Shown: positions 6,757 through 47,936, numbered from the stretch's first letter. The stretch: DNA of 64,000 nucleotides from an uncultured Gammaproteobacteria bacterium (GCA_964588165.1 CAZPMS010000006.1:3425-67424), one strand, 5' to 3'. Numbers and translations: made by a program. The notes: generated by a model from the sequence alone, not told the origin.

Positions 6757-7173
6757 CTACTCACTAAATACAACTATCTCCTCATTAGTTTCTTCCAACA
6801 TATACCTTAAAGTATATACTTGGCCGTCGGACCAATAATAATAAGAAATATTTTCTGAAGCTGATGGATCTTGAGGAACTTCACCTAAAGCATTAACTAA
6901 AGCTTCATAACCATTGCTGGCTTCATCATTTTGGAAAGGAAAATTGTTATTTTGGCTATTATACTCTGTTAACTTGTTTTGAACAGCTTGAATATCTTCT
7001 TTTCTCTTAATATCTCTTTGTTTTACCAATTCTTTTTCATGATCTATGCCAGCCATAACTCCAGTACTAACCAAACCGATAATAGCTAAAGCTAACGGAA
7101 TAACTAAGATAACAGCACCTTTTTTATCTCGCCATGAGTAAATTTGAGAAGCGGATTTATTAGTTAAATTCAT
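6757..7173 (-). CDS. hypothetical membrane-anchored protein, pilin/pseudopilin-like C-terminal region
   Basis: 138 aa with an N-terminal hydrophobic helix. The RDIKRKEDIQAVQNKLTEYNSQNNNFP stretch resembles type IV pilin-like globular-domain openings. No G/FTLIE cleavage motif. Confidence 0.4.
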   Translation of the reverse strand: MNLTNKSASQIYSWRDKKGAVILVIPLALAIIGLVSTGVMAGIDHEKELVKQRDIKRKEDIQAVQNKLTEYNSQNNNFPFQNDEASNGYEALVNALGEVPQDPSASENISYYYWSDGQVYTLRYMLEETNEEIVVFSE

Positions 7174-7273: not shown

Positions 7274-7312
7274 ATCTGCGGGTAATCTGGCGGGTAATCT
7301 GTGTTATCTGCG
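7274..7312 (+). repeat. phased heptamer array A (ATCTGCG, ATCTGGC, ATCTGTG, ATCTGCG)
   Basis: Heptamers start at 7274, 7285, 7297 and 7306 (spacing 11, 12, 9). The array ends 7 nt before TTGACA at 7319. Confidence 0.75.
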
Positions 7313-7318
7313 ACAGCA

Positions 7319-7347
7319 TTGACAAACCTGCTATTTTATGATAAGCT
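7319..7347 (+). promoter_or_regulatory. sigma70-type promoter of islet ORF 2
   Basis: TTGACA (7319-7324), N17, TAAGCT preceded by TG (extended -10-like). The leader contains CAACAAAAC-ATAGAGAGG before the ATG at 7397. Confidence 0.55.
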
Positions 7348-7396
7348 GATTTATTAAATTCTTTAACAACACCAACAAAACATAGAGAGGTCTACC

Positions 7397-8260
7397 ATGA
7401 GAAGAAGGTGGATAAAAATTGACGGTACTGATACCGTTATCCGCGGTAAAACGGTAACTTTGAATTTAGAGTTACCGAGTGAATTCCAAAACGTTCACAG
7501 TCGTGATTTGGTGATAAACTGTGATGAAGGAAATGTACTGATTTGTGAAAGGGATGGTATTCACATCGCACCGACCATTGAAGTTTTTCCTGATACTCCT
7601 GATGTTCTTACTTTGGAAGTTAAGGGTAAGCTCATTCATCAACCAACAACAAGGACTGATTCTGCAAAGGAAACCGGCAGAGGAGATCCTTACAAAGTTG
7701 GCGAGCCACAGGTGGAACCGATTTTCGCCGATCCTGATCCGGAAGCTGAAGAAGAAGCAGAACTGGAACAGATTGGTGAAAGAATTACTATCACCCAAGA
7801 AATGCCGGTATACGAAACCACTGAAATCCATCACTTTGAGGCTGAAGAAAATTATTCTGCACGCTTTACTTTCAGGGTGATTGATTCTCGGCCGCTGATC
7901 AAACGTAACGAACTCACTGAGCTTCGGTTTGAGCTACCTGATGGTTTCGGCAAAATCAATGAACATCATCTACCAAAGATTTTGGGAAAGGGCGCCTACG
8001 TTACCGAGTGGCAACAGATAGGCCAAGCCTTAACTGTTTCGGTGAAGACCAAAAAGTCTTCACCCGAGGAAATTACTCTGCGGGTTCGCGGCATGTGTGA
8101 AGGCGAACATACTGAGGAATTCTTCAAAATTGATGTAGAGCCGGAAACTGAAAAGGTTAAGAGAAAAACTCTTATAGCCTTGGCAATACTTCTGCTGATA
8201 GCTGCCAGCTTTGTTTCGGGCATATACATTTCTACTCTTTTCCCTCTGTTATTTCAGTAG
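7397..8260 (+). CDS. hypothetical tail-anchored protein with two beta-rich repeats and an acidic linker (GC-rich islet ORF 2)
   Basis: 287 aa. Internal repeat (..LTLEVKGK.. / ..ITLRVRGM..), DPDPEAEEEAELEQ linker and a single C-terminal TM helix. High G+C. SD GAGAGG. Confidence 0.6.
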   Translation: MRRRWIKIDGTDTVIRGKTVTLNLELPSEFQNVHSRDLVINCDEGNVLICERDGIHIAPTIEVFPDTPDVLTLEVKGKLIHQPTTRTDSAKETGRGDPYKVGEPQVEPIFADPDPEAEEEAELEQIGERITITQEMPVYETTEIHHFEAEENYSARFTFRVIDSRPLIKRNELTELRFELPDGFGKINEHHLPKILGKGAYVTEWQQIGQALTVSVKTKKSSPEEITLRVRGMCEGEHTEEFFKIDVEPETEKVKRKTLIALAILLLIAASFVSGIYISTLFPLLFQ

Positions 8261-8277
8261 ACCAAGTTAATTTCATT

Positions 8278-8311
8278 CCGTCGGTTAACACTAATAACCG
8301 GCGGTTTTTTA
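8278..8311 (+). terminator. Rho-independent terminator of islet ORF 2
   Basis: CCGTCGGTTA / TAACCGGCGG stem followed by TTTTTT. Confidence 0.7.
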
Positions 8312-8359
8312 TTTAAAAAAACTTAAAAATAAAAAATAGTAGATAGATATCCGCGGACT

Positions 8360-8409
8360 ATCAGTGATTAATCAGTGATCGTTCCGCGAATATCAGTGAA
8401 TTATCTATG
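8360..8409 (+). repeat. phased heptamer array B (ATCAGTG x3, ATCTATG)
   Basis: Heptamers start at 8360, 8371, 8392 and 8403 (spacing 11, 21, 11). The array ends 7 nt before TTGACA at 8416. Confidence 0.7.
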
Positions 8410-8415
8410 AAAAAC

Positions 8416-8444
8416 TTGACAAAATCAATAAATTATGCTAAATT
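8416..8444 (+). promoter_or_regulatory. sigma70-type promoter of islet ORF 3
   Basis: TTGACA (8416-8421), N17, TAAATT (8439-8444). The leader has the palindrome AATGTTgttgAACATT (8456-8471), ACATAGACAAAAC, and SD AAAGGAG. Confidence 0.65.
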
Positions 8445-8515
8445 ACAATGTTAAAAATGTTGTTGAACATTGACAAAAAAACGCTAAACATAGACAAAAC
8501 AAAGGAGTACTGAAA

Positions 8516-10882
8516 ATGGCTACCACCGCAAAAGAAGTAGCTGGCGCAGCCACTGCTACCTCAGCTGCCGCAGCCAGAGAACAATTCCGTTTGGAACTGT
8601 GGCAAGTTTTCCGCGACATTCTTATCGGCAAAGACAAGTGGGTTGATGAAGTTGCCAGAACCCATTACGAAAACCAATTCAAGGAACAGTTTTCGGAGAA
8701 ATACGACCTACTTCTGAAAATGCTTCATCCCGACAACCTAAGTACTACCGACCAGCATTGCCTGGATATGGTGGCCTTGGAACATGCCAAGTTGGCCGAT
8801 AAATCTTTGCACGAAAAGGATACGGCTAAGCTCATACCAGGGATGTTTAAAATCTTCTGCGACAAGTTGGAAGAAGTTATTGACTTGGCTACCGAAGGTG
8901 ATGAGTTTGACGTCATCAAAGCGCACACACTGCTCCGGGACAAACGCTGGATCGGTCAGGGCTTCTGGGCTCAAAGGCTAAAGGAAAACATGGGTGAAAT
9001 TCTCAAGCTGGGTTGGATTTCTGAAGGCCTGAGAAGATTTATCCAATCTCCTATCGTTCATGACTTCATGGAAGGAGCTGAACAGCCTTCCATCGATTTC
9101 TTTGAATGGGCCCAGCAGCATTACAACCTCGCAGCCAAAATACGCAGCGGAGCACCCAGTAATCGCCGTTACAGCAACAACCCCTTCAAAAACTTTTTTG
9201 TAGGGCTGCAGTTGATGATTGGTGTTGCTTGGAACTATCTGATGGTAGGCTTGGGCAAGGTGAACAAGTTAAGGCAACAGAATTGGCACAGGATTGGCAA
9301 AAGGACCTTCTGGACAACCATAATTGTTCTGGGTGTGGTCATTGCTTTCCTGATACTGCTGGGATTAGGAATCCACAACAGCTACTTCAAAAGTACCAAC
9401 TACCTTTGGCTTATTGCGACTGCTGGAATTCTACTGTTCATCATCTTTGCTACACTCAAGATTATTGAGGCTGCACTGGGATTGGCCATCTTCACGGTAC
9501 GCTTGGCTTTTGCTGTTATAGCTAGGCCGTCCCTCTGGACCGTTGAACAAGGCGGTAAGTTTATCTGGCAAGTTGGTACTTGGCCAATTGAATTTGGCTT
9601 TGACGCTATAACCGACACCTTTAAGGGGCTATTAATGTTCTTAGGGGTTGATATTGAGGACATTGAACGGTTAAGCGACAGAAAATTCGAACTGACTGAA
9701 GCTCAGAAATCTGCTTGGGGAGATTTAAGTAAACGAACAGAAGACTTGATGAAAGGCGCCCGCCAAACCAGTATTTTCATCACTGTCGGCTTCAAGTATT
9801 TTGCGGCGCTGATAACTTCCACTTCTTTCCTGATCTTGGCCAAATGGCAGTTTTCTGGCGTAGACTCCAGTGCGGTTTTGAACAATCCGGTTTTTGCTCT
9901 GCTGATTCTTTTCCTGCTGGGCTCGCTTTTCACCCATTTTGGAATCCGTGAATATCAGGCAAGAATTGCTAAAGCTACCGGCTTAGATGACAAAAAGCGC
10001 TCCTGGCGAACAGTTAACCGGATTGCTTTTGCTTGCCTTGTTCTGCTGATTCTGGCTGAATGGCGATTTGAAACCGTCACTAACGTCTGGTACTACAATG
10101 CCAGGCAATCAGCAGCCATAACCGAACACGCAAACCAAGAAAGGAGGCTTAAAACTGCGATTTGGGAAAAAAATCGCAGTGCAACAATTCATCGTGGAGC
10201 AACTGTATTTTTGGCAGAAACCGATACAGAAAACGATGATGAGTCTTACATCGTCATAACCGACTCAACTTTCAGCCGGCCAAATCCGAATGTGGTTTAT
10301 GTGGTAAAACCTGCCCTTGAGCAAAACGGCCAGGTATTTACTATCTACAACCCCATTGACCAAAATGGCATCAGGCAAGCAAGCCTGCAATACGCTGTTT
10401 TGGCTCAATATCTGGATCAGGTTACTCCAAACGAGGCAGCCCGCTTGCTGGCTACCAAAACTGAGGCAAAGCCATCATTAATGCCTAGCTCCATTACTTA
10501 CAATCCGAGCAAAGGCATGGCAGTGCTTGGGTATGTTAACACCGATGATGTTCTTTATCTGGATCCTGTCCAACTGTCACTACTTAGCTGTCCTGAAGAA
10601 AGCGATATTGGACTGAAAGGTACCCATGGTACACCGCGTAGCCGCCATGAAGATTGGCCTGAAGAATTCGTTGATCAGCGCATGCGGCTTGGCGCCCTGT
10701 TGGTGAAATTACCAGCTTATGGTTGGCAACCTTTGTACCAAGCCGAGTCATTCAACATCCGTGGCAGCGGAACAGCCATGGTCTGCGTTAATACGCGGCG
10801 TGGGCTTTTTGGCCTTAACGAAGGAGGAATGGTAGATATTGCTATCAGGCTGGAAACCTATGCCGAAATGGCACAACGTTAA
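8516..10882 (+). CDS. hypothetical polytopic membrane protein, 788 aa (GC-rich islet ORF 3)
   Basis: Long uninterrupted ORF at roughly 45-60% G+C in sampled stretches. Soluble N-terminal ~270 aa, ~8 hydrophobic helices, soluble C-terminal ~250 aa. No family recognised. Confidence 0.65.
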   Translation: MATTAKEVAGAATATSAAAAREQFRLELWQVFRDILIGKDKWVDEVARTHYENQFKEQFSEKYDLLLKMLHPDNLSTTDQHCLDMVALEHAKLADKSLHEKDTAKLIPGMFKIFCDKLEEVIDLATEGDEFDVIKAHTLLRDKRWIGQGFWAQRLKENMGEILKLGWISEGLRRFIQSPIVHDFMEGAEQPSIDFFEWAQQHYNLAAKIRSGAPSNRRYSNNPFKNFFVGLQLMIGVAWNYLMVGLGKVNKLRQQNWHRIGKRTFWTTIIVLGVVIAFLILLGLGIHNSYFKSTNYLWLIATAGILLFIIFATLKIIEAALGLAIFTVRLAFAVIARPSLWTVEQGGKFIWQVGTWPIEFGFDAITDTFKGLLMFLGVDIEDIERLSDRKFELTEAQKSAWGDLSKRTEDLMKGARQTSIFITVGFKYFAALITSTSFLILAKWQFSGVDSSAVLNNPVFALLILFLLGSLFTHFGIREYQARIAKATGLDDKKRSWRTVNRIAFACLVLLILAEWRFETVTNVWYYNARQSAAITEHANQERRLKTAIWEKNRSATIHRGATVFLAETDTENDDESYIVITDSTFSRPNPNVVYVVKPALEQNGQVFTIYNPIDQNGIRQASLQYAVLAQYLDQVTPNEAARLLATKTEAKPSLMPSSITYNPSKGMAVLGYVNTDDVLYLDPVQLSLLSCPEESDIGLKGTHGTPRSRHEDWPEEFVDQRMRLGALLVKLPAYGWQPLYQAESFNIRGSGTAMVCVNTRRGLFGLNEGGMVDIAIRLETYAEMAQR

Positions 10883-10892
10883 CAACAAACAA

Positions 10893-10932
10893 CCCCTTAT
10901 CATTTTTTCAAAATGATAAGGGGTTTTCTTTT
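10893..10932 (+). terminator. strong Rho-independent terminator of islet ORF 3
   Basis: 14-bp perfect stem CCCCTTATCATTTT / AAAATGATAAGGGG followed by TTTTCTTTT. Confidence 0.85.
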
Positions 10933-10978
10933 AAATAAATTTATTCTACAAACTACCAACTACAACCTACTCACTATA

Positions 10979-12097
10979 TTATAATCCTTCTTTTTCTAAA
11001 TCTTCCAATAACTTCTTTTGCTTCCGGCTTAAATTATCAGGCACTTCTACCTTTACTTCTACAATTAAGTCTCCCCTGCCTCGGCCTCTTAATTTATGGG
11101 AGCCTTTATTTTTAATATTAAATTGGCGTCCAGTTGGCGTACCAGCCGGAATTTTTAAACTTACTTTGCCGTCTAAGGTTTCTATCTGGACTTTATCGCC
11201 CAAACTGGCTTGAGAAAATTTAATGGTTTTAGTTGTATGCAAATTATCGCCTTCTCTGTTAAATATTTTATGGGGCAAAACCCTAACTGTTATATATAAA
11301 TCTCCGGCTGTGGAACCTTTTAAGCCAGCTTCGCCTTTACTGGTTAGCCTTACAGTTTCCCCGGTAGAAATTCCGGCCGGAATACCAACTTTAACCCTTT
11401 CTTTGCCTCTTACTATACCATTACCGTGGCACTTAGCACATTCTTTTTCCGGTTTTTTACCTTCACCCATGCAGGCTTCGCAAACAGCTGCTGTCCTAAA
11501 AGTGCCAAAAAAAGTATTTTGAGTTTTATTTACCTGCCCGGAACCGCCACAGGTTTTGCATCCGCTGATTTTAGTGCCTGGCTCTGCCCCATTTCCCTTG
11601 CATTTTTCACACAAAATATTTTTAGAAATATCCAAAGTTTTTTCTATACCAAAAATTGCTTCCTCTAAAGTAATATTTATGCCAGCTTCAATGTCTCTGC
11701 CTTTATAATTCCTTCTGGTTGCTTGTTGGCGTTGGCCACCGCCAAAAAAATCGCCAAAGATATCGCCCAAATCATCAATATTAATATTATAACTACCTTG
11801 TCTAAAACCACCTCCACCTGCTCCACCTTGCCTAAAGGCATCAGACCAGTTAAAACCGGCATCATAAGCTGCCTGGCCGCCCATGCCCTCAAAACTGGTT
11901 CCAAACTGATCATACTGCTTTCTTTTTTTATCATTGCCAAGAACCTGATAAGCTTCGTTTACTTCTTTAAACTTATCAGCATTGCCGTTGCCTTTATCCG
12001 GATGATGCTCATGTGCCTTTTTCCTAAAGGCTTTTTTTACTTCATCGGCAGTGGCGCTTTTCTCTACGCCCAATGTTTTATAGTAATCTTTTCCCAT
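10979..12097 (-). CDS. dnaJ: molecular chaperone DnaJ
   Basis: J-domain with HPD (HEHHPDKG), a G/F-rich region and four CxxCxGxG zinc-finger repeats. Confidence 0.95.
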   Translation of the reverse strand: MGKDYYKTLGVEKSATADEVKKAFRKKAHEHHPDKGNGNADKFKEVNEAYQVLGNDKKRKQYDQFGTSFEGMGGQAAYDAGFNWSDAFRQGGAGGGGFRQGSYNINIDDLGDIFGDFFGGGQRQQATRRNYKGRDIEAGINITLEEAIFGIEKTLDISKNILCEKCKGNGAEPGTKISGCKTCGGSGQVNKTQNTFFGTFRTAAVCEACMGEGKKPEKECAKCHGNGIVRGKERVKVGIPAGISTGETVRLTSKGEAGLKGSTAGDLYITVRVLPHKIFNREGDNLHTTKTIKFSQASLGDKVQIETLDGKVSLKIPAGTPTGRQFNIKNKGSHKLRGRGRGDLIVEVKVEVPDNLSRKQKKLLEDLEKEGL

Positions 12098-12110
12098 TAT
12101 AATATGTTAA

Positions 12111-12134
12111 GCCGACGGTTTTTAAACCGCCGGC
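12111..12134 (-). other. intergenic GC stem-loop between dnaK and dnaJ
   Basis: GCCGGCGGTTT / AAACCGTCGGC on the minus strand. No U-run, so more likely a processing or attenuating hairpin than a terminator. Confidence 0.45.
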
Positions 12135-12149
12135 CTGAACGTTTATTTA

Positions 12150-14084
12150 TTATTTATCTTCCTTGTCATCCGAAGAGGATGATTCCTTTACTTCTTCAAC
12201 TTCTGCTTCCACAGGTTCGTCTTTCTTTTCTTCTGATTGGTTTTCTTGACCTTCCTGACCTTCAGTTGGCTGTGCCTGCTCTTGCTGTTGTTTATACATG
12301 CTTTCACCAATTTTCTGGACAGTCTGGTTCATATCTTCCAAAGCCTTGTTAATAACTTCAGCATCTTCGCCATCTTTAACCTTTTTTAAGGCATCCATTT
12401 TTTCGGTTACTTCGGTTTTTACATCTTCCGGAACCTTATCAGCTGATTCCTTAAGTAGTTTTTCTGTTTGGAAGATTACTGAATCGGCATTGTTTTTAGC
12501 ATCAATTAAATCCTTTTTCTTTTTATCATCATCAGCATGAAGTTCAGCATCCTTTTTCATCTTTTCTACTTCATCTTTAGAAAGTCCGGATGAAGCGGTA
12601 ATGGTAATTGACTGTTCTTTACCTGTGGCTTTATCTTGCGCCTTAACGCTTAAAATGCCGTTGGCATCTATATCAAAGGTAACTTCCACTTGAGGAACGC
12701 CCCTTGGTGCCGGCGGAATTCCGGAAAGGATAAATCTGCCTAAAGTTTTATTATCTTGGGCCATTTCTCTTTCGCCCTGTAAAACATTAATTTCTACTGA
12801 TGACTGGTTATCGGCCGCAGTAGAAAAAATTTGTGTTTTAGAAGTTGGGATGGTGGTATTCTTTTCTATTAACGGAGTCCTTACGCCACCTAAGGTTTCT
12901 AAGCCTAGAGTTAAAGGAGTTACATCCAATAACAGCACATCTTTAACATCGCCTTGCAAAACACCAGCCTGGACTGCAGCTCCAAGTGCTACTACCTCGT
13001 CTGGATTAACTGAAATATTTGGCTTTTTGCCAAAATATTCCTCTACCTTCTTTAATACTAAAGGCATTCTGGTCATGCCGCCAACTAAAATTATTTCGTC
13101 TATATCTTCTTTTTTAAAGCCGGAATCTTTTATTGCTAATTCAACCGCTTTAAACGATTGTTCAACTAACTCTGTAGTTAACTCATCAAGTTTAGCTCTG
13201 GTTAATTTCATTACCAAATGTTTTGGCCCTGCCTGATCGGTTGTTATAAACGGCTGATTAATTTCAGTTTCAGTGGAAGTAGAAAGTTCTACCTTGGCTT
13301 TTTCTGCGGCTTCTTTAACTCTTTGCATGGCCATGGCGTCACCGGTTAAATCTATACCCTGGTCTTTTTTGAATTCAGCAATAATCCAGTTAATAACCTT
13401 CTGGTCAAAGTCATCACCACCTAAATGAGTATCGCCATTGGTGGATTTAACTTCTACAGTATCTTCAGAAACATCTAAAATAGAAATATCAAAAGTTCCG
13501 CCGCCAAGGTCATAAACTGCCAGCTGCTGATTTTTCTTTTTATCAAAACCATAAGCCAAAGCAGCGGCTGTTGGTTCATTAACAATACGCTTTACTTTAA
13601 AACCGGCAATTTCTCCTGCATCCTTTGTGGCTTGACGCTGTGAATCGCTAAAATAAGCCGGTACGGTAATAATGGCTTCTTCAATTTTTTCACCCAGTTT
13701 CTCTTCAGCATCAGCTTTTAGCTTCTGCAAAATCATGGCCGAAATTTCTTGGGGCGTATATTCCTTATCTCCCATTTTAACTTTAACGCCAGCACCTGAT
13801 TTGACGATTTTATAAGGCATGGTTTTAATGTCGTCTTGGACTTCTTTATCTTCAAACTTTCGTCCAATTAAACGTTTTATGGAAAACAAAGTACTTTCCG
13901 GATTGGTGACGGCTTGCCTTTTAGCCAGTTGGCCGGCTAACCTTTCGTTGGTTTTGGAAACAGCCACCATAGATGGGGTGGTTCTGTTGCCTTCTTTGTT
14001 TTCTAATATTTTTGGCTGTCCGCCTTCCATAACAGCCATGGCTGAATTTGTTGTTCCTAGATCAATACCTAATATTTTTGGCAT
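12150..14084 (-). CDS. dnaK: molecular chaperone DnaK (Hsp70)
   Basis: 644 aa. [17 protein letters not shown] and the full Hsp70 architecture, with an acidic C-terminal tail. Confidence 0.97.
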
Positions 14085-14181
14085 ATTTTTATTATTAATT
14101 ATTAATAATTGATGATTAATGACTTATGATCATACTTATAATTAATTGATCATAAATCATAGTCCATAAATTAATTTCAAT

Positions 14182-14229
14182 ATCTGCGAATAATCTGCGC
14201 GTCATCTGTGACCAATCTGCGTATCTCTT
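14182..14229 (+). repeat. phased heptamer array C (ATCTGCG, ATCTGCG, ATCTGTG, ATCTGCG, degenerate ATCTCTT)
   Basis: Heptamers start at 14182, 14193, 14204 and 14215 (exact 11-bp spacing), then 14223. Lies between the divergent dnaK start (14084) and TTGACA at 14238. Confidence 0.8.
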
Positions 14230-14237
14230 ATTAACTA

Positions 14238-14266
14238 TTGACAAATCCTGTAACTGTTGTTAAATT
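14238..14266 (+). promoter_or_regulatory. sigma70-type promoter of islet ORF 4
   Basis: TTGACA (14238-14243), N17, TAAATT (14261-14266). The leader has the palindrome TTGAAatgTTCAA (14270-14282), CAACAAAAC, and SD AAGGAG. Confidence 0.7.
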
Positions 14267-14306: not shown

Positions 14307-14762
14307 ATGGACCAGCATGTATTTACTTTGAAAGGACGCTTCTGGTGCCTTGGAGGCCTTAGCGTTCATAGGGCTTTATTAAGGCCAGCTGACTACCTGC
14401 AAGATCCTAGGCCGACTCTGGGCGAAATGACCAAGGCATTCTTTAACCTGATGCATCTGAAACTTGGCAGGCTCGAACTTCCTATCCAAAAGGGTGGCCA
14501 TGGAGAAATCTGGATTTTTTATCCTAATGGATCTGGATTTAAAATTGAATTCAGGGAAGGGAAATTATGCCTCATCCGTTTTGGCAAATTCAGTGATGAT
14601 AGTCTGGATGTAAAATATCATGAAAATATTCTCGCCAAAATACCAATAGGCTCCCTGCCTCCAGAAGCAATAAAACAAGATTTTGTGCTTGACAATGGAA
14701 TGATACTGAATCACGATTCAATATCTCAACTAGGAACTGTCTTTACTGGCCTAGCCGCCTAA
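14307..14762 (+). CDS. hypothetical protein (GC-rich islet ORF 4)
   Basis: 151 aa. Higher G+C than the flanks, with SD AAGGAG 7 nt upstream. No family recognised. Confidence 0.55.
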   Translation: MDQHVFTLKGRFWCLGGLSVHRALLRPADYLQDPRPTLGEMTKAFFNLMHLKLGRLELPIQKGGHGEIWIFYPNGSGFKIEFREGKLCLIRFGKFSDDSLDVKYHENILAKIPIGSLPPEAIKQDFVLDNGMILNHDSISQLGTVFTGLAA

Positions 14763-14812: not shown

Positions 14813-15148
14813 TTAAAATCCTTTCAATTTTTCTATAAAAGAACTATCTTTATTAATTAACTGATGAATCTCTAAAACATTATCAGAAATAATTTCTGGC
14901 TCCAATGTATAATCCATAACTTCTATTGCTGAAAGATCTGTTAAAATTGCATTGCCGATTAAACCGTGCGGCATGGTCATAACCCTTACAATAATACTGG
15001 AAGAACAGTGGCCACAGGTTAAATATGCCAAAAAGCCTTGTTCGTTTTCATCCAATATTTCAATCTTGCCTTCGGTATAATCATGGTTGCAAACCGGGCA
15101 TTTTTGAACCAATTTCAAACTAAATTGTCCTTTTTGACTGTTATTCAT
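14813..15148 (-). CDS. hypothetical zinc-ribbon protein
   Basis: 111 aa with CPVCNH...CGHC cysteine pairs. Native AT-rich style. Sits in the heat-shock cluster. Confidence 0.5.
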   Translation of the reverse strand: MNNSQKGQFSLKLVQKCPVCNHDYTEGKIEILDENEQGFLAYLTCGHCSSSIIVRVMTMPHGLIGNAILTDLSAIEVMDYTLEPEIISDNVLEIHQLINKDSSFIEKLKGF

Positions 15149-16819: not shown

Positions 16820-16846
16820 CTAGCACTCAAGCCATATGAGTGCTAA
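16820..16846 (-). promoter_or_regulatory. CIRCE operator (HrcA binding site)
   Basis: Minus strand TTAGCACTC-N9-GAGTGCTAG. Matches the consensus TTAGCACTC-N9-GAGTGCTAA at 17/18 positions. Confidence 0.9.
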
Positions 16847-27563: not shown

Positions 27564-28952
27564 TTAAAATAATTTATCCCACAAAGTTATGAAGGAAAAT
27601 AAGCCAAAAAATAGAAAGGCTATTAGAAGTATTATCTTACGATATAATTTTGGATGAAAAACTTTAGGCAGAGTTTTAAAATTCATGATATTTACTAAAG
27701 CAATGTGGATAAACATGGCGAAGGCATTAATAACTGCTCCCAAAACAATTAGCATTTTGGGTTCATAAATATTAAAAAGAAAAAGAATAATGCCAAAAGC
27801 AATTTGTGACCATAAAAAAAGATAATAGATCTTGGAAAGATTTATTTTTACCTGTTGAGTATGGTCTGATCTTTCTAAAGCGAAATTTTCAGCCATTACT
27901 CTAGAGGTTGAATCCATTATTCCTAATTGTGTTTGAAAAAGCATAACCGAAACCATTAGCAAAAATAAAACACCAACTATTGGAACTAAACTTTTACCGA
28001 TAGCTAAACCTTCATTTATAACAAAGTTAATTCCAGTAGCATTAGATTCCAGGCCAAAAGTGGTGGTATATGAGAGAATCATTAATAAACACATGGCCAC
28101 AAAACCAACTAGCCAAAATACTAACAGATGTTCGGTATTAATCCTTTTCCACCAAATTTTAAACCGGCTGATGTTTTCTTCATTCAATTCAAATTTTTCT
28201 CCGGTAAGTTTTATCTGATTTTCTTTCTTGCTCTTAAACAGGCCTGATATTTTTTGTGAATACTTGCCCATGCCATAGCCTTTTTCCTTAATATAAATTG
28301 ACTGGGTAAGGTTTAAATTGCCTCCGGCTCCAGAATAAGCAAAGGCGCCAAAAAATGTGCCGATAGCTATGCCCAAGGGCAAAAATTGATAACCCTGCCC
28401 TATGCCTATAATCCCCCGCCCCAGTTCTACCCAATCAGCATTTTTGCTAAGCATTACCGCTAAGACTAAAATAAAAGGCACGCCAATAAAGATTATAGTT
28501 TTGGTAACCCTTTCCATAACTCCATAAACTGTTTTTCCCAAACTTAGAATTAAGCCTACTACTATTAAAAGTAAGATGGCAATCCATTTAAAATTTTCTA
28601 TGCCAATAACAAAAGCAAAAACCTTGGCCGATGCCGCTACAATTCCTGGCAGGCCAAAACCAACAAAGGTTGAAAAAATAAACCAATAAGGCGCCAGTTT
28701 AAATATTTTATTTAATCCAACAAAAACGCTTTCTCCTTTTATTAAGGCGTAGCGCTCAATTTCCATATTAATAAAAAACTGGAAAGTAATTCCCAACAGC
28801 GCTCCCCAAACAAGCCCTAAGCCGTAATTTGAAGCCAAGTAAGGCCATAATATAACCTCTCCCGAGCCCAAACCAAGGGCTAAAATAATAAAGCTCGGTC
28901 CTATGAGCTTTCTTAATCTGACTGGTTTAGGAAATTCTTTTGTTTGCTTCAT
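27564..28952 (-). CDS. Nramp-like membrane transporter (distant)
   Basis: Multi-TM protein. I moved the start to MKQTKEF (28952), 14 nt after the upstream stop; the track start 29045 would overlap the AMMECR1 gene by 80 nt. Confidence 0.45.
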   Translation of the reverse strand: MKQTKEFPKPVRLRKLIGPSFIILALGLGSGEVILWPYLASNYGLGLVWGALLGITFQFFINMEIERYALIKGESVFVGLNKIFKLAPYWFIFSTFVGFGLPGIVAASAKVFAFVIGIENFKWIAILLLIVVGLILSLGKTVYGVMERVTKTIIFIGVPFILVLAVMLSKNADWVELGRGIIGIGQGYQFLPLGIAIGTFFGAFAYSGAGGNLNLTQSIYIKEKGYGMGKYSQKISGLFKSKKENQIKLTGEKFELNEENISRFKIWWKRINTEHLLVFWLVGFVAMCLLMILSYTTTFGLESNATGINFVINEGLAIGKSLVPIVGVLFLLMVSVMLFQTQLGIMDSTSRVMAENFALERSDHTQQVKINLSKIYYLFLWSQIAFGIILFLFNIYEPKMLIVLGAVINAFAMFIHIALVNIMNFKTLPKVFHPKLYRKIILLIAFLFFGLFSFITLWDKLF

Positions 28953-28965
28953 CGCTATTATTATA

Positions 28966-29526
28966 TCACTTTTTATGACTTTCCCTAAAGACTTCCGCTT
29001 GATAAGTATAAATTTTAATTTTATCCGACTGCCAGCAATCAGCATACCAGCCTCCTTTTAAACACAGGCTGGACAAAAATTCATCTGTTGAGGAAAATCC
29101 ATGCCAAACCTGGGGTAAATAGGTTGACCCCTTGTTTCCTTGTTTTAATATTACTCCATCAATACCCGGCCTAAGCTTACTGACATCTTTAAGCCCTTGC
29201 GGAGCAGATAAAATTGATATTTCAACAATAATATTACCAAGCTCATTTAAAGACAATGGCAAAAACCTATCATCATAAAATCCGGCAGCCACGGCATTTT
29301 CTATAACACCCTGATAAAGTGGCTTAATAGGTTCGATATAACCAACACAGCCCCTTAGCTTGCCTTCTTTTTCTAAAGTGACAAAAACGCCCCTTTTTTC
29401 TTTAAGAGGCTCTGTAACTTCTGATTCATTAACTGACAGTTGTTGGCCGGTTTTAAAATAATACTCAATGGACTTACGGGCCAGTTTAAAAAGTAAAGTT
29501 ATGTTATTTTTATCAATCAATTCCAT
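28966..29526 (-). CDS. AMMECR1 domain protein
   Basis: 186 aa. GVFVTLEKEGKLRGCVGYIEP core motif. Confidence 0.8.
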   Translation of the reverse strand: MELIDKNNITLLFKLARKSIEYYFKTGQQLSVNESEVTEPLKEKRGVFVTLEKEGKLRGCVGYIEPIKPLYQGVIENAVAAGFYDDRFLPLSLNELGNIIVEISILSAPQGLKDVSKLRPGIDGVILKQGNKGSTYLPQVWHGFSSTDEFLSSLCLKGGWYADCWQSDKIKIYTYQAEVFRESHKK

Positions 29527-29581: not shown

Positions 29582-30061
29582 TTATACTTTTAATTTTTCT
29601 TTCACTTTATTTACAACATCTTCTAATTTCCAGTCGCTTTTAATTAAATAATCATAGGCGCCACTTTCTAACATTTCAGCAATCTTTTCCCTATCATTTA
29701 AAACTGTTAATACTATTACCTGGACTTTACTACCCCATGTATCTTTTCTTAATTCCTTTAACATCTTTACTCCGTTCATCTTCGGCATAATAATATCTAA
29801 CAAGATAATATCAGGATGCTCTTTAAATGCAATTTCTAACCCTTCCTGGCCGTTTTTTGCCTGAAAAACCCCGAAGCCGTCAATCTTTGGCATAACCAGA
29901 TCTAAAAAAAGCAAATCAAACTTTTCACTTTTTAACAAATTTAATATTTCTTCACCATTATAAGCAACTTTTACATCAAAACCGGCACTTTTTAGTTTTA
30001 ATTCCAAAGCTTTAGCCATGGGCTTTTCATCTTCTCCTATTAAAATTTTCTTATTTGGCAT
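29582..30061 (-). CDS. response-regulator receiver (REC) protein with an internal ~33-aa duplication
   Basis: ILIGEDE..., then two successive phosphoacceptor blocks: AYNGEEILNLLKSEKFDLLFLDLVMPKIDG and AKNGQEGLEIAFKEHPDIILLDIIMPKMNG. No output domain. Confidence 0.8.
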   Translation of the reverse strand: MPNKKILIGEDEKPMAKALELKLKSAGFDVKVAYNGEEILNLLKSEKFDLLFLDLVMPKIDGFGVFQAKNGQEGLEIAFKEHPDIILLDIIMPKMNGVKMLKELRKDTWGSKVQVIVLTVLNDREKIAEMLESGAYDYLIKSDWKLEDVVNKVKEKLKV

Positions 30062-40484: not shown

Positions 40485-41048
40485 TTATCTTTTCTTTTTC
40501 ACTTTAGTATTTTTTCTCTTTGGCTTTTTTGTGGTTCTGCGTTTTTGCGCTTTTGCGGTCTTCGCGCCTTTGCGTTTAATCTTCTTTATTTCTGAAAATA
40601 GATGGACTATTGGCTCTTCCAACTTTTTATAATCATTAACTGTCATTTTGATGCTTTCCACCAATGAACCTCCGGAAAAAATTACTTTCTTTACTTTGTC
40701 AAAACCCTTATCTAGAATAACTTCAACTTTATGGATAGAACCAAATCCGGTTAATGAACCGGGCTTAATTTTAAAAGCTTTAATAAGTTCCGCTTCTTTT
40801 GGAATAACCACTTTTTTGGCCTTAAGGGCTTTTTTTAATTTAGATAAATTTACGTTCTTGTCTGAAGCCAAAATTAACAAATAATAGTTCTTATCAGCTT
40901 TAACAACTAATGACTTGGCGATTTCATCTAATTTGACTTTAAGAGTTGCCGCAGCATCAAAGGCAGTATAAACTTTTTTATGCGGTACAATTTCGTATTT
41001 TACTTTTTTATCATCTAAATGTTTTAGCACTTTCTTTGAAGTTGACAT
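40485..41048 (-). CDS. YbaK/aminoacyl-tRNA deacylase-domain protein with a Lys/Arg-rich C-terminal tail
   Basis: The YbaK-like core covers ~150 aa. The last ~35 aa (KKIKRKGAKTAKAQKRRTTKKPKRKNTKVKKKR) are encoded by a reiterated CGCAAAA-type word tract. Confidence 0.7.
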   Translation of the reverse strand: MSTSKKVLKHLDDKKVKYEIVPHKKVYTAFDAAATLKVKLDEIAKSLVVKADKNYYLLILASDKNVNLSKLKKALKAKKVVIPKEAELIKAFKIKPGSLTGFGSIHKVEVILDKGFDKVKKVIFSGGSLVESIKMTVNDYKKLEEPIVHLFSEIKKIKRKGAKTAKAQKRRTTKKPKRKNTKVKKKR

Positions 41049-41064
41049 ATATTTTAATTTAATT

Positions 41065-41123
41065 ATCTGCGGAATATCTGCGTGTCATCTGCGCCTGCCC
41101 GCCTATTGCGGGGTCAATCTGCG
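41065..41123 (+). repeat. phased heptamer array D (ATCTGCG x4) interrupted by a GC hairpin
   Basis: ATCTGCG at 41065, 41076, 41087 and 41117 (spacing 11, 11, 30). The CCCGC-CTATT-GCGGG hairpin lies between them. The array is 17-75 nt upstream of the minus-strand start at 41048. Confidence 0.75.
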
Positions 41124-41429
41124 TTATCTTTTTCCCTTTTTAAATTGAAAACTTTTTTGTTCGCCTAATAACTTTTTAGCAATTAAACGACCTTTAGGTG
41201 TTAGGCTTACTTCTTTAATAAACCACTTATGCTGAGTTCTTTGGCCATAACCGACCATTAAACCCTTATCAATTAATCTATCTATGCTTTTTGAAATTAT
41301 TTTAACCTGTTCTAATTTTGATGGAGTTTTTTTGCCGTTGTAATATTTATGGTAACGGCTGCGTAAAATCTTATTCCTTTGCCCAAAACTTTCTTTAAGT
41401 ATAAATTTTTGTAGGGCTGAAAGCTTCAT
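41124..41429 (-). CDS. hypothetical small basic protein (possible wHTH)
   Basis: 101 aa, Lys/Arg-rich. ATGA overlap with the upstream HD gene. Confidence 0.45.
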   Translation of the reverse strand: MKLSALQKFILKESFGQRNKILRSRYHKYYNGKKTPSKLEQVKIISKSIDRLIDKGLMVGYGQRTQHKWFIKEVSLTPKGRLIAKKLLGEQKSFQFKKGKR

Positions 41430-46410: not shown

Positions 46411-46558
46411 ATAAAACTTTTAATTTCTTCTGAAGTTAATTCCCGCCAATTTCCAGGCGGTAAATCTTCCATTTTAATGCTACCAACTCTGATTCTTTTC
46501 AAACTGACCACTTCATAGCCTATATTTTCTACCATCCGCCTTATTTGCCTATTCCAGC
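46401..46558 (-). pseudogene. orphan 3'-terminal fragment of the rluB-type pseudouridine synthase gene
   Basis: An open frame without a start: GWNRQIRRMVENIGYEVVSLKRIRVGSIKMEDLPPGNWRELTSEEIKSFIKK*. A ~103-bp block (46456-46558) is near-identical to 47193-47295 inside the live gene. Confidence 0.85.
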
Positions 46559-46562
46559 CCTA

Positions 46563-46591
46563 TTGACAATATTTTTAATATATGATATTAT
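46563..46591 (+). promoter_or_regulatory. sigma70-type promoter of islet ORF 6
   Basis: TTGACA (46563-46568), N17, TATTAT (46586-46591). Starts 5 nt after the end of the duplicated rluB block. Confidence 0.65.
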
Positions 46592-47125: not shown

Positions 47126-47821
47126 TCATCCTCTGAAAGCCTCGGCAAATGCTGAGGCTTTTTCTTTTTCTGTAAGATTACGCCACTTACCGGGCGGTAA
47201 ATCTTCCATTTTAATGCTACCAACTCTGATTCTTTTCAAACTAAGCACCTCATAGCCTATATTTTCTACCATCCGCCTTATTTGCCTATTCCAGCCTTGG
47301 TGGACTACAATTCGTAATTTATTATCCGAAACTCTTAAAATCTTATCGGCCTTGGCAATTCCCTCCCTCAACTTGATGCCCTGTCTCAATTTTTTAATTG
47401 ACTGTTCATTAATTACTTGTTCAGTTTCTACTAAATATTCTTTTTCATGTTTGAACTTGGGATGCATTATTTTATTGGCAAAGTCGCCGTCATTAGTAAG
47501 GATAATCAAACCGGATGATTCTACATCTAACCTGCCAACCGGATAAATTCTTTCTTTAATATCAATCTTTTCTATAATATTATCTCTTTTTGTCTCATCA
47601 GTTGTGCAAATAACACCAACCGGTTTATGGTAAGCAATGTAAATTGATGACTGATGATTAATGATTAATTTTTTTCCGACCTTAACTTCATCAGTCTCAT
47701 CAACCTGGCTACCAAGTTCGGCTATCTCATCATTAATAAAAACCTTGTTTTGTTTTATTAGTTCATCAGCTTGCCTGCGTGAACAGTGTCCGCTTTCGGC
47801 TAAATATTTGTTTATTCTCAT
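47126..47821 (-). CDS. rluB: 23S/16S rRNA pseudouridine synthase, RsuA/RluB family
   Basis: S4 domain MRINKYLAESGHCSRRQADELI, catalytic VGRLDVESSGLIILTNDG. The C-terminal ~10 aa derive from islet sequence. Confidence 0.88.
   Translation of the reverse strand: MRINKYLAESGHCSRRQADELIKQNKVFINDEIAELGSQVDETDEVKVGKKLIINHQSSIYIAYHKPVGVICTTDETKRDNIIEKIDIKERIYPVGRLDVESSGLIILTNDGDFANKIMHPKFKHEKEYLVETEQVINEQSIKKLRQGIKLREGIAKADKILRVSDNKLRIVVHQGWNRQIRRMVENIGYEVLSLKRIRVGSIKMEDLPPGKWRNLTEKEKASAFAEAFRG
47139..47170 (+). terminator. terminator of islet ORF 6, embedded in the rluB 3' coding end
   Basis: GCCTCGGCA-AAT-GCTGAGGC followed by TTTTTCTTTTTC. Its reverse complement encodes the last residues (ASAFAEAFRG) of the live rluB gene. 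Confidence 0.7.
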
Positions 47822-47854: not shown

Positions 47855-47936
47855 ATCTGTGAGTAATCCCTACCTTCCGGCAGGCAGGCGTGGGTCATCT
47901 GGTGGGTAATCAGTAAATATCTGTGACTTATCCGTG
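47855..47936 (+). repeat. phased heptamer array E (ATCTGTG, ATCTGGT, ATCAGTA, ATCTGTG, ATCCGTG) with a GC hairpin insert
   Basis: Heptamers start at 47855, 47897, 47909, 47919 and 47930. The hairpin CCTACCTTCCGGCAGGCAGG lies at ~47868-47887. The array abuts TTGACC at 47937. Confidence 0.65.

Follow-up and report, generated by a model that had tools for sequence, protein, structure and literature searches.

Phased ATCNGYG direct-repeat arrays in an uncultured patescibacterium as putative docking sites for a DNA-binding protein

A 64-kb stretch of metagenomic DNA (CAZPMS010000006.1:3425-67424, here called the window) carries five arrays of the heptamer ATCNGYG, repeated in direct orientation with a predominant period of 11 bp. 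These arrays are a non-random cis-element with a PhoB/OmpR-like direct-repeat architecture; three strong promoters are linked to them, as, probably, is the chaperone gene dnaK. We propose that they are docking sites for one sequence-specific DNA-binding protein of the lineage, a reading to which we give about even chances, and the possibility that the arrays spread as a repeat is non-trivial. The source organism is an uncultured member of the Patescibacteria, the closest named relatives of its DnaK being Candidatus Komeilibacteria. The Patescibacteria (candidate phyla radiation) lack genetics and encode very few regulators that can be recognised in their tiny genomes, and to our knowledge almost nothing is known of their transcription control. 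The window is part of a 167-kb metagenome scaffold (ERZ23499059 scaffold_24), has a GC content of about 35% with a negative GC skew throughout, and carries nearly all of its genes on the minus strand.

An earlier note on this DNA had described five helically phased arrays, and all five are present where it placed them. With clusters defined as three or more matches to ATC[ACT]G[CT][GA] within 35 bp, the window contained five clusters, which are arrays A to E, compared to none in 300 dinucleotide shuffles; all five lie on the plus strand and none on the minus strand. The heptamer ATCWGYG occurs 33 times in the window (14.1 ± 3.6 expected from dinucleotide shuffles), and since 18 of these 33 matches fall within the five arrays, elsewhere the heptamer is at background. 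Each array-bearing intergenic region held 3-6 matches against 0.12-0.19 expected from its own shuffles, and a chance or low-complexity artefact is ruled out by the whole-window and per-region shuffles together. Neighbouring strict matches were 11 bp apart in 8 of 14 cases, the dominant spacing, with the remainder at 9-12 bp or multiples.

All array units read ATCNGYG on one strand and are therefore same-orientation direct repeats. A table of 26 units shows hardly any variation at positions 0-2 (ATC), 4 (G) and 6 (G) and a pyrimidine at position 5; on the 5' side, positions -3 to -1 lean to R, T and W, and on the 3' side +7 and +8 are random. As to an A/T-rich spacer segment, the place of minor-groove contact by the wing in winged-helix sites, T or W stood at positions -2/-1 in 16-22 of the 26 units, and +7/+8 had no bias. 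The conserved unit is thus about 10 nt long (RTWATCTGYG), where the earlier note had given 7 nt. Spacers vary both between and within arrays, and a conserved heptamer with a partial RTW 5' flank and free spacers is, judged from sequence, the signature of selected protein-binding sites and not of recent slippage. The window arrays were not flagged by raw 11-bp autocorrelation because their spacers differ, which indicates that they are not simple tandem duplications and rules out plain slippage repeats. They are also identical in six other independent metagenome assemblies of the organism (99.96-100% identity) and hence not hypervariable, and the constant repeat number across the six rules out a phase-variable promoter repeat. 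Rfam covariance models returned only tRNAs in the window and a single tRNA in 18 array-bearing loci; a known structured RNA family was accordingly rejected as the identity of the arrays for want of an Rfam match. String searches of the literature for the repeat found nothing relevant, and we know of no described motif that matches the core ATCNGYG.

Three of the arrays directly precede plus-strand promoters. Array A (7274-7312) has units at 7274, 7285 (ATCTGGC), 7297 and 7306, spaced 11, 12 and 9 bp apart, and is followed by the promoter (7319-7347; TTGACA, 17 nt, TGa-TAAGCT) of a gene for a 287-aa protein with a C-terminal membrane anchor (7397-8260, +). Array B, whose end at 8409 was placed correctly before, starts at 8349 rather than 8360 and comprises six units, at 8349 (ATCCGCG), 8360, 8371, 8382 (TTCCGCG), 8392 and 8403 (ATCTATG); its ATCAGTGAT units are themselves 9-bp palindromes. 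The promoter that follows it (8416-8444; TTGACA, 17 nt, TGc-TAAATT) belongs to a gene for a 788-aa multi-pass membrane protein (8516-10882, +). Array C (14182-14229), placed between dnaK (12150-14084, -; start codon 97 nt from the array) and a gene for a 151-aa ORFan (14307-14762, +), has four units at 14182, 14193, 14204 and 14215 in an exact 11-bp period plus a degenerate fifth, which makes three exact intervals and not the four claimed earlier. The promoter of the 151-aa gene lies at 14238-14266 (TTGACA, 17 nt, TGt-TAAATT). None of the three products belongs to a Pfam, PHROG or PADLOC family, and in a search against 5.8 billion proteins the 151-aa protein matched only itself.

The relation of these arrays to their promoters is regular. 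Relative to the -35 box, units start at -45, -34, -22 and -13 in array A, at -67, -56, -45, -34, -24 and -13 in array B, and at -56, -45, -34 and -23 in array C, so that the unit starts of all three are congruent modulo 11 to the -35 box and the -45 position is common to all of them; we estimate the chance of such a common phase at about (1/11)^2. The promoters are of one type (TTGACA, 17 nt, TGn, TAA(G/A)(C/T)T), and apart from that the three modules show no relationship in their array spacers or promoter spacers. Being locked in one register to a plus-strand -35 box argues that A, B and C act on those promoters. A census of intergenic TTGAC[AC]-N16-18-TAnnnT promoters in the window found arrays at three of the six on the plus strand, compared to none of the five on the minus strand. 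The TTGACA or TTGACC boxes reported after A, B, C and E do exist, and the gaps to them are 6, 6, 16 and 0 nt and not 7-16 nt. Arrays D and E depart from the pattern of A, B and C: the TTGACC that directly follows array E has no acceptable -10 at 16-18 nt, which makes a promoter there doubtful, and no promoter lies downstream of array D. Arrays D and E and an array in the related locus L145 (below) fall outside the register of A, B and C.

Array D (41065-41132, +) has units at 41065, 41076, 41087 and 41117, a degenerate one at 41126 and a GC-rich insert at 41094-41116. It occupies the entire 75-bp gap from the stop codon of a gene for a conserved 101-aa Patescibacteria protein without a Pfam family (41124-41429, -), which it adjoins, to the start codon of a YbaK-like tRNA-editing gene (40485-41048, -), 16 nt away. 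Array E (47855-47936, +), with units at 47855, 47866 (ATCCCTA), 47897 (ATCTGGT), 47909 (ATCAGTA), 47919 and 47930 and a GC-rich insert at 47873-47896, lies between the gene of an rluB-like pseudouridine synthase (47126-47821, -; start codon 33 nt away) and a 164-aa gene. The inserts add about 19-20 bp to each array. They had been described as GC hairpins, and the inserts are real, but the D insert forms only a 5-bp stem (z -1.0), the E insert no convincing hairpin (z +0.4), and neither beats shuffles; the region of about 180 nt downstream of array E likewise folded no better than shuffles (z -0.47). A sixth array, F, with four units (ATCTGTGagccATCTGCGtatATCTGCGaaccATCTGTGatATG), was found about 9 kb past the right end of the window (L194:901-939, + in window orientation). 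It ends 2 nt before the ATG of guaB, which encodes inosine monophosphate dehydrogenase (IMPDH), and a TTGATT-17-TATAAT promoter lies about 90 nt upstream of the array F/guaB start. At this locus the purine-gene cluster continues with guaA, folD and purA. Arrays D, E and F and the array before dnaK in L145 have no credible plus-strand promoter and lie 2-41 nt from housekeeping start codons, so the arrays as a group cannot be explained just as activator sites ahead of -35 boxes.

The minus-strand genes said to lie 17-145 nt from A, C, D and E are in place, at distances of 100, 97, 16 and 33 nt. For array A the gene concerned encodes a pilin-like 138-aa protein (6757-7173, -) and has its own TTGACG-16-TATAAT promoter at 7236-7209, with the array 38 bp upstream of its -35 box. 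The ambiguity over which promoter the arrays serve, already pointed out, is real, and the dnaK locus bears on it. Synteny around dnaK is kept in relatives with 79-88% identical DnaK, which were compared with the window. In L145 (DnaK 84% identical), a four-unit array (ATCCGTGagtcATCAGTGattcATCCGTGaactATCTGTG) with an exact 11-bp period lies in the 82-bp gap between the homologue of a 111-aa gene and dnaK, in the orientation of array C and at 41 nt from the dnaK start, and the unit closest to dnaK continues into a TATAAT. As no plus-strand gene stands beside this array, array C probably also serves dnaK. At a second site in L145, 12 units (ATCNGTGATWK) over 11 consecutive 11-bp intervals are joined by about nine inverted units upstream of the TTGACA promoter of an opposite-strand unannotated operon after dnaJ, the positional equivalent of array A, and L161 has a degenerate double array at the same place. 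Arrays thus recur at two orthologous positions, before dnaK and before the opposite-strand membrane-protein operon after dnaJ. In L087, a more distant Patescibacteria metagenome-assembled genome (MAG), a divergent double array also precedes a promoter (L087:2140-2340); downstream of that promoter the sequence reads as an open reading frame (ORF) for a 41-aa Cys-rich metallothionein-like peptide (MDTCTKCTMPLTDDTKCSCQDGVCCHCCDCDEGCACGCKDK, translation read by eye).

In the window, array C and the 151-aa gene split the chaperone cluster into hrcA-grpE-hsp20-111aa and dnaK-dnaJ. A controlling inverted repeat of chaperone expression (CIRCE) operator (CTAGCACTC-N9-GAGTGCTAA, one mismatch) upstream of hrcA at 16820-16846 is the sole CIRCE, so that hrcA-grpE-hsp20 are under classical HrcA control, whereas dnaK-dnaJ are set apart from them by array C and the 151-aa gene. 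HrcA was ruled out as the link between the arrays and dnaK, as the only CIRCE precedes hrcA and none is found at the arrays. CtsR of Firmicutes offers a partial likeness, its operator being a direct heptanucleotide repeat at chaperone and protease genes, as is the array before dnaK here and in L145. However, the CtsR operator is a GGTCAAA repeated twice with a 10-bp period, CtsR is absent from the region, and hrcA with CIRCE is present. The 111-aa gene (14813-15148, -) encodes a conserved CxxC...CxxC zinc-ribbon protein without a significant Pfam match; all relatives examined have it at this place, between hsp20 and dnaK, with 39-79% identity.

The 788-aa protein behind array B has a 35%-identical homologue in L148 at the same syntenic place, on the opposite strand after dnaJ, indicating that the gene set is fast-evolving and not freshly imported and ruling out a recent foreign insert. 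A phage or defence origin of the plus-strand genes was also rejected, with no meaningful PHROG match and no PADLOC match. In every relative, one or more large opposite-strand genes without a Pfam family directly follow dnaJ (7397-10882, +, in the window; L145:14950-19953; L146:14200-18932; L148:12168-13976). These genes evolve fast, with detectable similarity left only in the 788-aa protein; those of the window differ from the housekeeping genes around them in a higher GC content (about 0.44 compared to 0.35) and in having strong Shine-Dalgarno sites.

Taken together, the conserved unit, the free spacers, the invariance across samples, the shared promoter register and the recurrence at two orthologous positions point to protein-binding sites under selection, and the direct orientation and the 11-bp period imply head-to-tail protomers on one helix face. 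In the mechanism that we propose, each 11-bp turn would hold one protomer of a protein that recognises the unit RTWATCNGYG, roughly 10 nt long; the protomers would follow each other head to tail, and the 4-6 unit copies (12 in a relative) would line one face of the helix. Winged-helix regulators of the OmpR/PhoB/SARP type work in this way, as do a few others that oligomerise. On the strong consensus promoters behind A, B and C, the oligomer would lie at about -48 to -100 from the transcription start and could modulate RNA polymerase there; activation and repression are not distinguishable, and we lean towards repression or gating, since little separates these promoters from consensus as they stand. 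For D, E, F and dnaK, it would sit on or just before the start of a housekeeping gene and may serve as an operator or roadblock.

Sites of OmpR/PhoB/SARP winged-helix regulators are direct repeats of a 7-nt core and a spacer of about 4 nt with an A/T-biased 3' part, aligned on one helix face. The earlier assignment to an OmpR/PhoB-family architecture holds for the direct repeats, the core-and-spacer build and the single helix face. Similar to the sites of OmpR, PhoB, PhoP (Bacillus, Streptomyces) and ArcA and the Pho box, the arrays combine a core of about 7 nt with a spacer of about 4 nt that may have a partial A/T bias, at 11 bp from centre to centre and with a variable unit number (2-6), and the placement of A, B and C at about -40 to -100 is OmpR-like. 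For ArcA, a published account documents multi-repeat sites with 2-5 repeats at 11-bp spacing (PMC3798270). Unlike these sites, the arrays reach 12 + 9 units in a relative, and some of them abut start or stop codons. The analogy to pho boxes fails, since a pho box stands in place of the -35 hexamer, at about 10 bp from the -10, whereas an intact consensus TTGACA follows A, B and C. SARP (Streptomyces antibiotic regulatory protein) sites are heptameric direct repeats with 4-nt spacers, hence an 11-bp period, and are bound by an OmpR-like winged-helix domain. The arrays resemble them in their heptamer direct repeats at that period; the difference is that SARP sites, an actinobacterial feature with a TCGAG-type core, extend into the -35 region and lie about 8 bp from the -10. 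Tandem 11-bp units flanking a promoter, such as the double array of L145, also recall iterons and ParR centromeres (11-bp repeats of parC in plasmid R1). However, iteron units are near-identical over their full length, lie beside rep or par and are confined to a single locus, whereas the window arrays have variable spacers, occur at many loci and have no par or rep genes.

The heptamer at this spacing is not confined to the window. An exact scan for three ATCTGYG at 11 bp returned at least 120 loci in species-representative genomes, and part of what such collection scans return is unrelated, namely common 11-bp tandem repeats and iteron-like arrays of phages, in which the spacers are identical. 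Among the matches listed, at least 82 belong to one conserved class, ATCTGYG-(ttca/tttc)-ATCTGYG-(tttc/ttca)-ATCTGYG-GCTAAA, a 33-mer (ATCTGTGtttcATCTGTGttcaATCTGTGGCTAAA) found among those matches in Verrucomicrobia, Planctomycetes, Acidobacteria, a Treponema and others (for example L024:4378-4471, L036:2702-2769, L043:235-263 and L067:3742-3870). In about one fifth of the listed 33-mers the end is 10-22 nt away from a downstream start codon, and the genes concerned are unrelated, among the matches listed those for FabG-like dehydrogenases, ABC ATPases, GatB, PfkB and a histidine kinase; other 33-mers form inverted pairs around GC hairpins. SARP-type placement is closer to that of the 33-mer than to that of the window arrays. 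The 33-mer had no Rfam match, and no paper with these strings was found. Three loci have it between the genes of an OmpR-family regulator and the cognate kinase. This regulator was considered as the reader of ATCTGTG and is probably not, since its gene has its own, different repeats upstream. These read GTCAC-N6-GTCAC-N6-GTCAC with an 11-bp period (L067:2960-3060 and L029:5100-5200, both Verrucomicrobia-type loci) and have the appearance of a classical site of autoregulation, separate from the ATCTGTG arrays of the same locus. It is conceivable, and in our view improbable, that ATCNGYG at 11 bp forms one cis-element class across phyla, in which a single horizontally spread binder family, or a mobile element carrying its sites, reads all of them as a portable promoter-proximal module. 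The link between the Patescibacteria arrays and the 33-mer is only suggestive because the shared core was imposed by the search pattern.

Several observations weigh against docking sites for one regulator. Within about 75 kb (the 64-kb window plus about 10 kb), no regulator with a Trans_reg_C domain and no other obvious candidate was found; the winged-helix response regulators that the earlier note had wanted listed are absent there, and the only receiver domain is a stand-alone one of 159 aa without an output domain (29582-30061, -). Beside it lies a 493-aa gene without a Pfam family (27564-29045). The 101-aa protein next to array D has a predicted MarR/PadR-like winged-helix fold (predicted local distance difference test, pLDDT, 85), yet its family, with members of about 100 aa, is widespread in Patescibacteria, and its gene keeps its place between that of an Asp/Asn-tRNA synthetase and ybaK-scpA-scpB; as a conserved housekeeping-operon gene whose homologues elsewhere have no adjoining arrays it was rejected as the binder, and would be a weak candidate at best. 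The arrays differ in position, as some precede -35 boxes, one abuts an ATG and others follow stop codons, including one between convergent glnA and htrA in the more distant Patescibacteria MAG L076, and the genes beside them have no common functional theme. The array before dnaK is absent from the closest relative, L144 (DnaK 88% identical), which has arrays elsewhere, and only 4 of 45 further related loci (366 kb) had arrays, two of these four being from the L144 and L145 genomes. Arrays are thus present in ERZ27247128 k141_1652439 (L145), ERZ27293400 k141_1051400 (L144), GCA_018818425.1 (L087) and JBFLWV01 (L076), and the 963-kb Ga0209142_1000001 (L146/L167) and GCA_900218215.1 (L147) count as array-negative. 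Finally, an old duplicated module of array plus promoter, rather than function, could account for the register that A, B and C have in common.

The strongest rival to a regulator-binding element is a dispersed, mobile or expansion-prone repeat, either MITE-like (miniature inverted-repeat transposable element), solo ends with transposase or recombinase sites, or 11-bp minisatellites, that lands in intergenic DNA and sometimes brings or creates promoters, with any regulatory effect incidental. We regard this as unlikely, though to be taken seriously. Array D in particular appears inserted at a conserved junction: in relatives (L195-197) the junction between the 101-aa gene and ybaK measures 20 bp and lacks the array, which makes D a 59-bp insertion directly after a stop codon and also counts against a regulatory element. 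The dnaK junction is similarly compact (24 bp) in L144, array C is missing there and in L146, L147 and L148, and the last three had no arrays at all in the loci scanned, so that distribution is patchy among close relatives and presence or absence varies at orthologous sites. The inverted or divergent double arrays of L145, L087 and L161 resemble terminal inverted repeats, GC-rich inserts recur inside arrays, the 12 near-identical units in L145 suggest slippage, and the 33-mer of Verrucomicrobia, Planctomycetes and Acidobacteria often occurs in inverted pairs around hairpins. The window also contains another plus-strand cassette of promoter and gene, without a heptamer array, that has a copy of a 136-bp direct repeat on either side (46424-46559 and 47161-47296, 89% identical, the second inside the 3' end of rluB); it comprises a TTGACA-17-TGnTATTAT promoter at 46563, a 141-aa ORF without a family and a terminator at 47135-47162, and looks like an insertion with a duplicated rluB 3' end. 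Short, patchy intergenic elements that insert next to genes and can supply a promoter or terminator are known as Correia or NEMIS elements, but those are conserved over their full length, with terminal inverted repeats and target duplications, whereas the window arrays have only the unit in common and neither spacers nor flanks, so they are not recent copies of a master element. Moreover, their heptamers are not decayed, no inverted partners, target-site duplications or transposase occur in the window, the arrays are invariant across the six assemblies, and an identical register to three -35 boxes would be unexpected under random insertion.

A protein loaded at the level of the chromosome (a DnaA-like initiator or titration cluster of 9-mers with 2-bp spacing, a nucleoid-associated protein or a replication-oriented polar element) would account for the strand bias, as six of six arrays lie on one strand, the C-rich one opposite most genes (two-sided p about 0.03, our own estimate), and for a density of about one array per 12 kb, which is high for a specific regulon. 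Low-affinity DnaA arrays at the Escherichia coli oriC have a same-orientation layout of 9+2 bp, and the arrays share with DnaA-box arrays their units of 9-10 nt in one orientation, the 11-bp period, a TTATC start (TTATCTGYG) and intergenic clusters by guaB- and dnaK-type loci. However, TGYG replaces the CACA half that is read by DnaA, and six clusters in 75 kb are too many. DnaA boxes (TTATNCACA) at up to one mismatch numbered 21 compared to 18 expected, with none in the arrays, and a canonical DnaA-box cluster is ruled out by this lack of enrichment. Both orientations also stand side by side in relatives, most relatives have no arrays, which would be odd for a core chromosome function, and the register to -35 boxes points to transcription; we consider a chromosome-level role quite improbable. 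An RNA-level explanation, in which AUCUGYG before guaB and CRCAGAU before ybaK, rluB and dnaK are protein- or ribosome-binding motifs in leaders without a Shine-Dalgarno site, seems to us very improbable. It would fit array F, which lies downstream of its promoter and ends next to the guaB AUG, arrays D and E, which precede start codons without a Shine-Dalgarno site, and the 33-mer with its short distance to many start codons. Nevertheless, the motif would have to face opposite ways from one transcript to another, arrays A, B and C precede their promoters and are not part of those mRNAs, and neither an Rfam match nor significant folding was found.

The arrays, as docking sites for one regulator, would give a concrete handle on transcription control in Patescibacteria, at about one array per 12 kb in this DNA. 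Their partners are fast-evolving membrane proteins without an assigned function, plus dnaK. The array DNA may be used directly as bait for a global regulator, in enrichment cultures or with expressed candidate proteins. If the heptamer code were indeed common to the arrays and the 33-mer, it would point to a widespread, undescribed system of promoter control.

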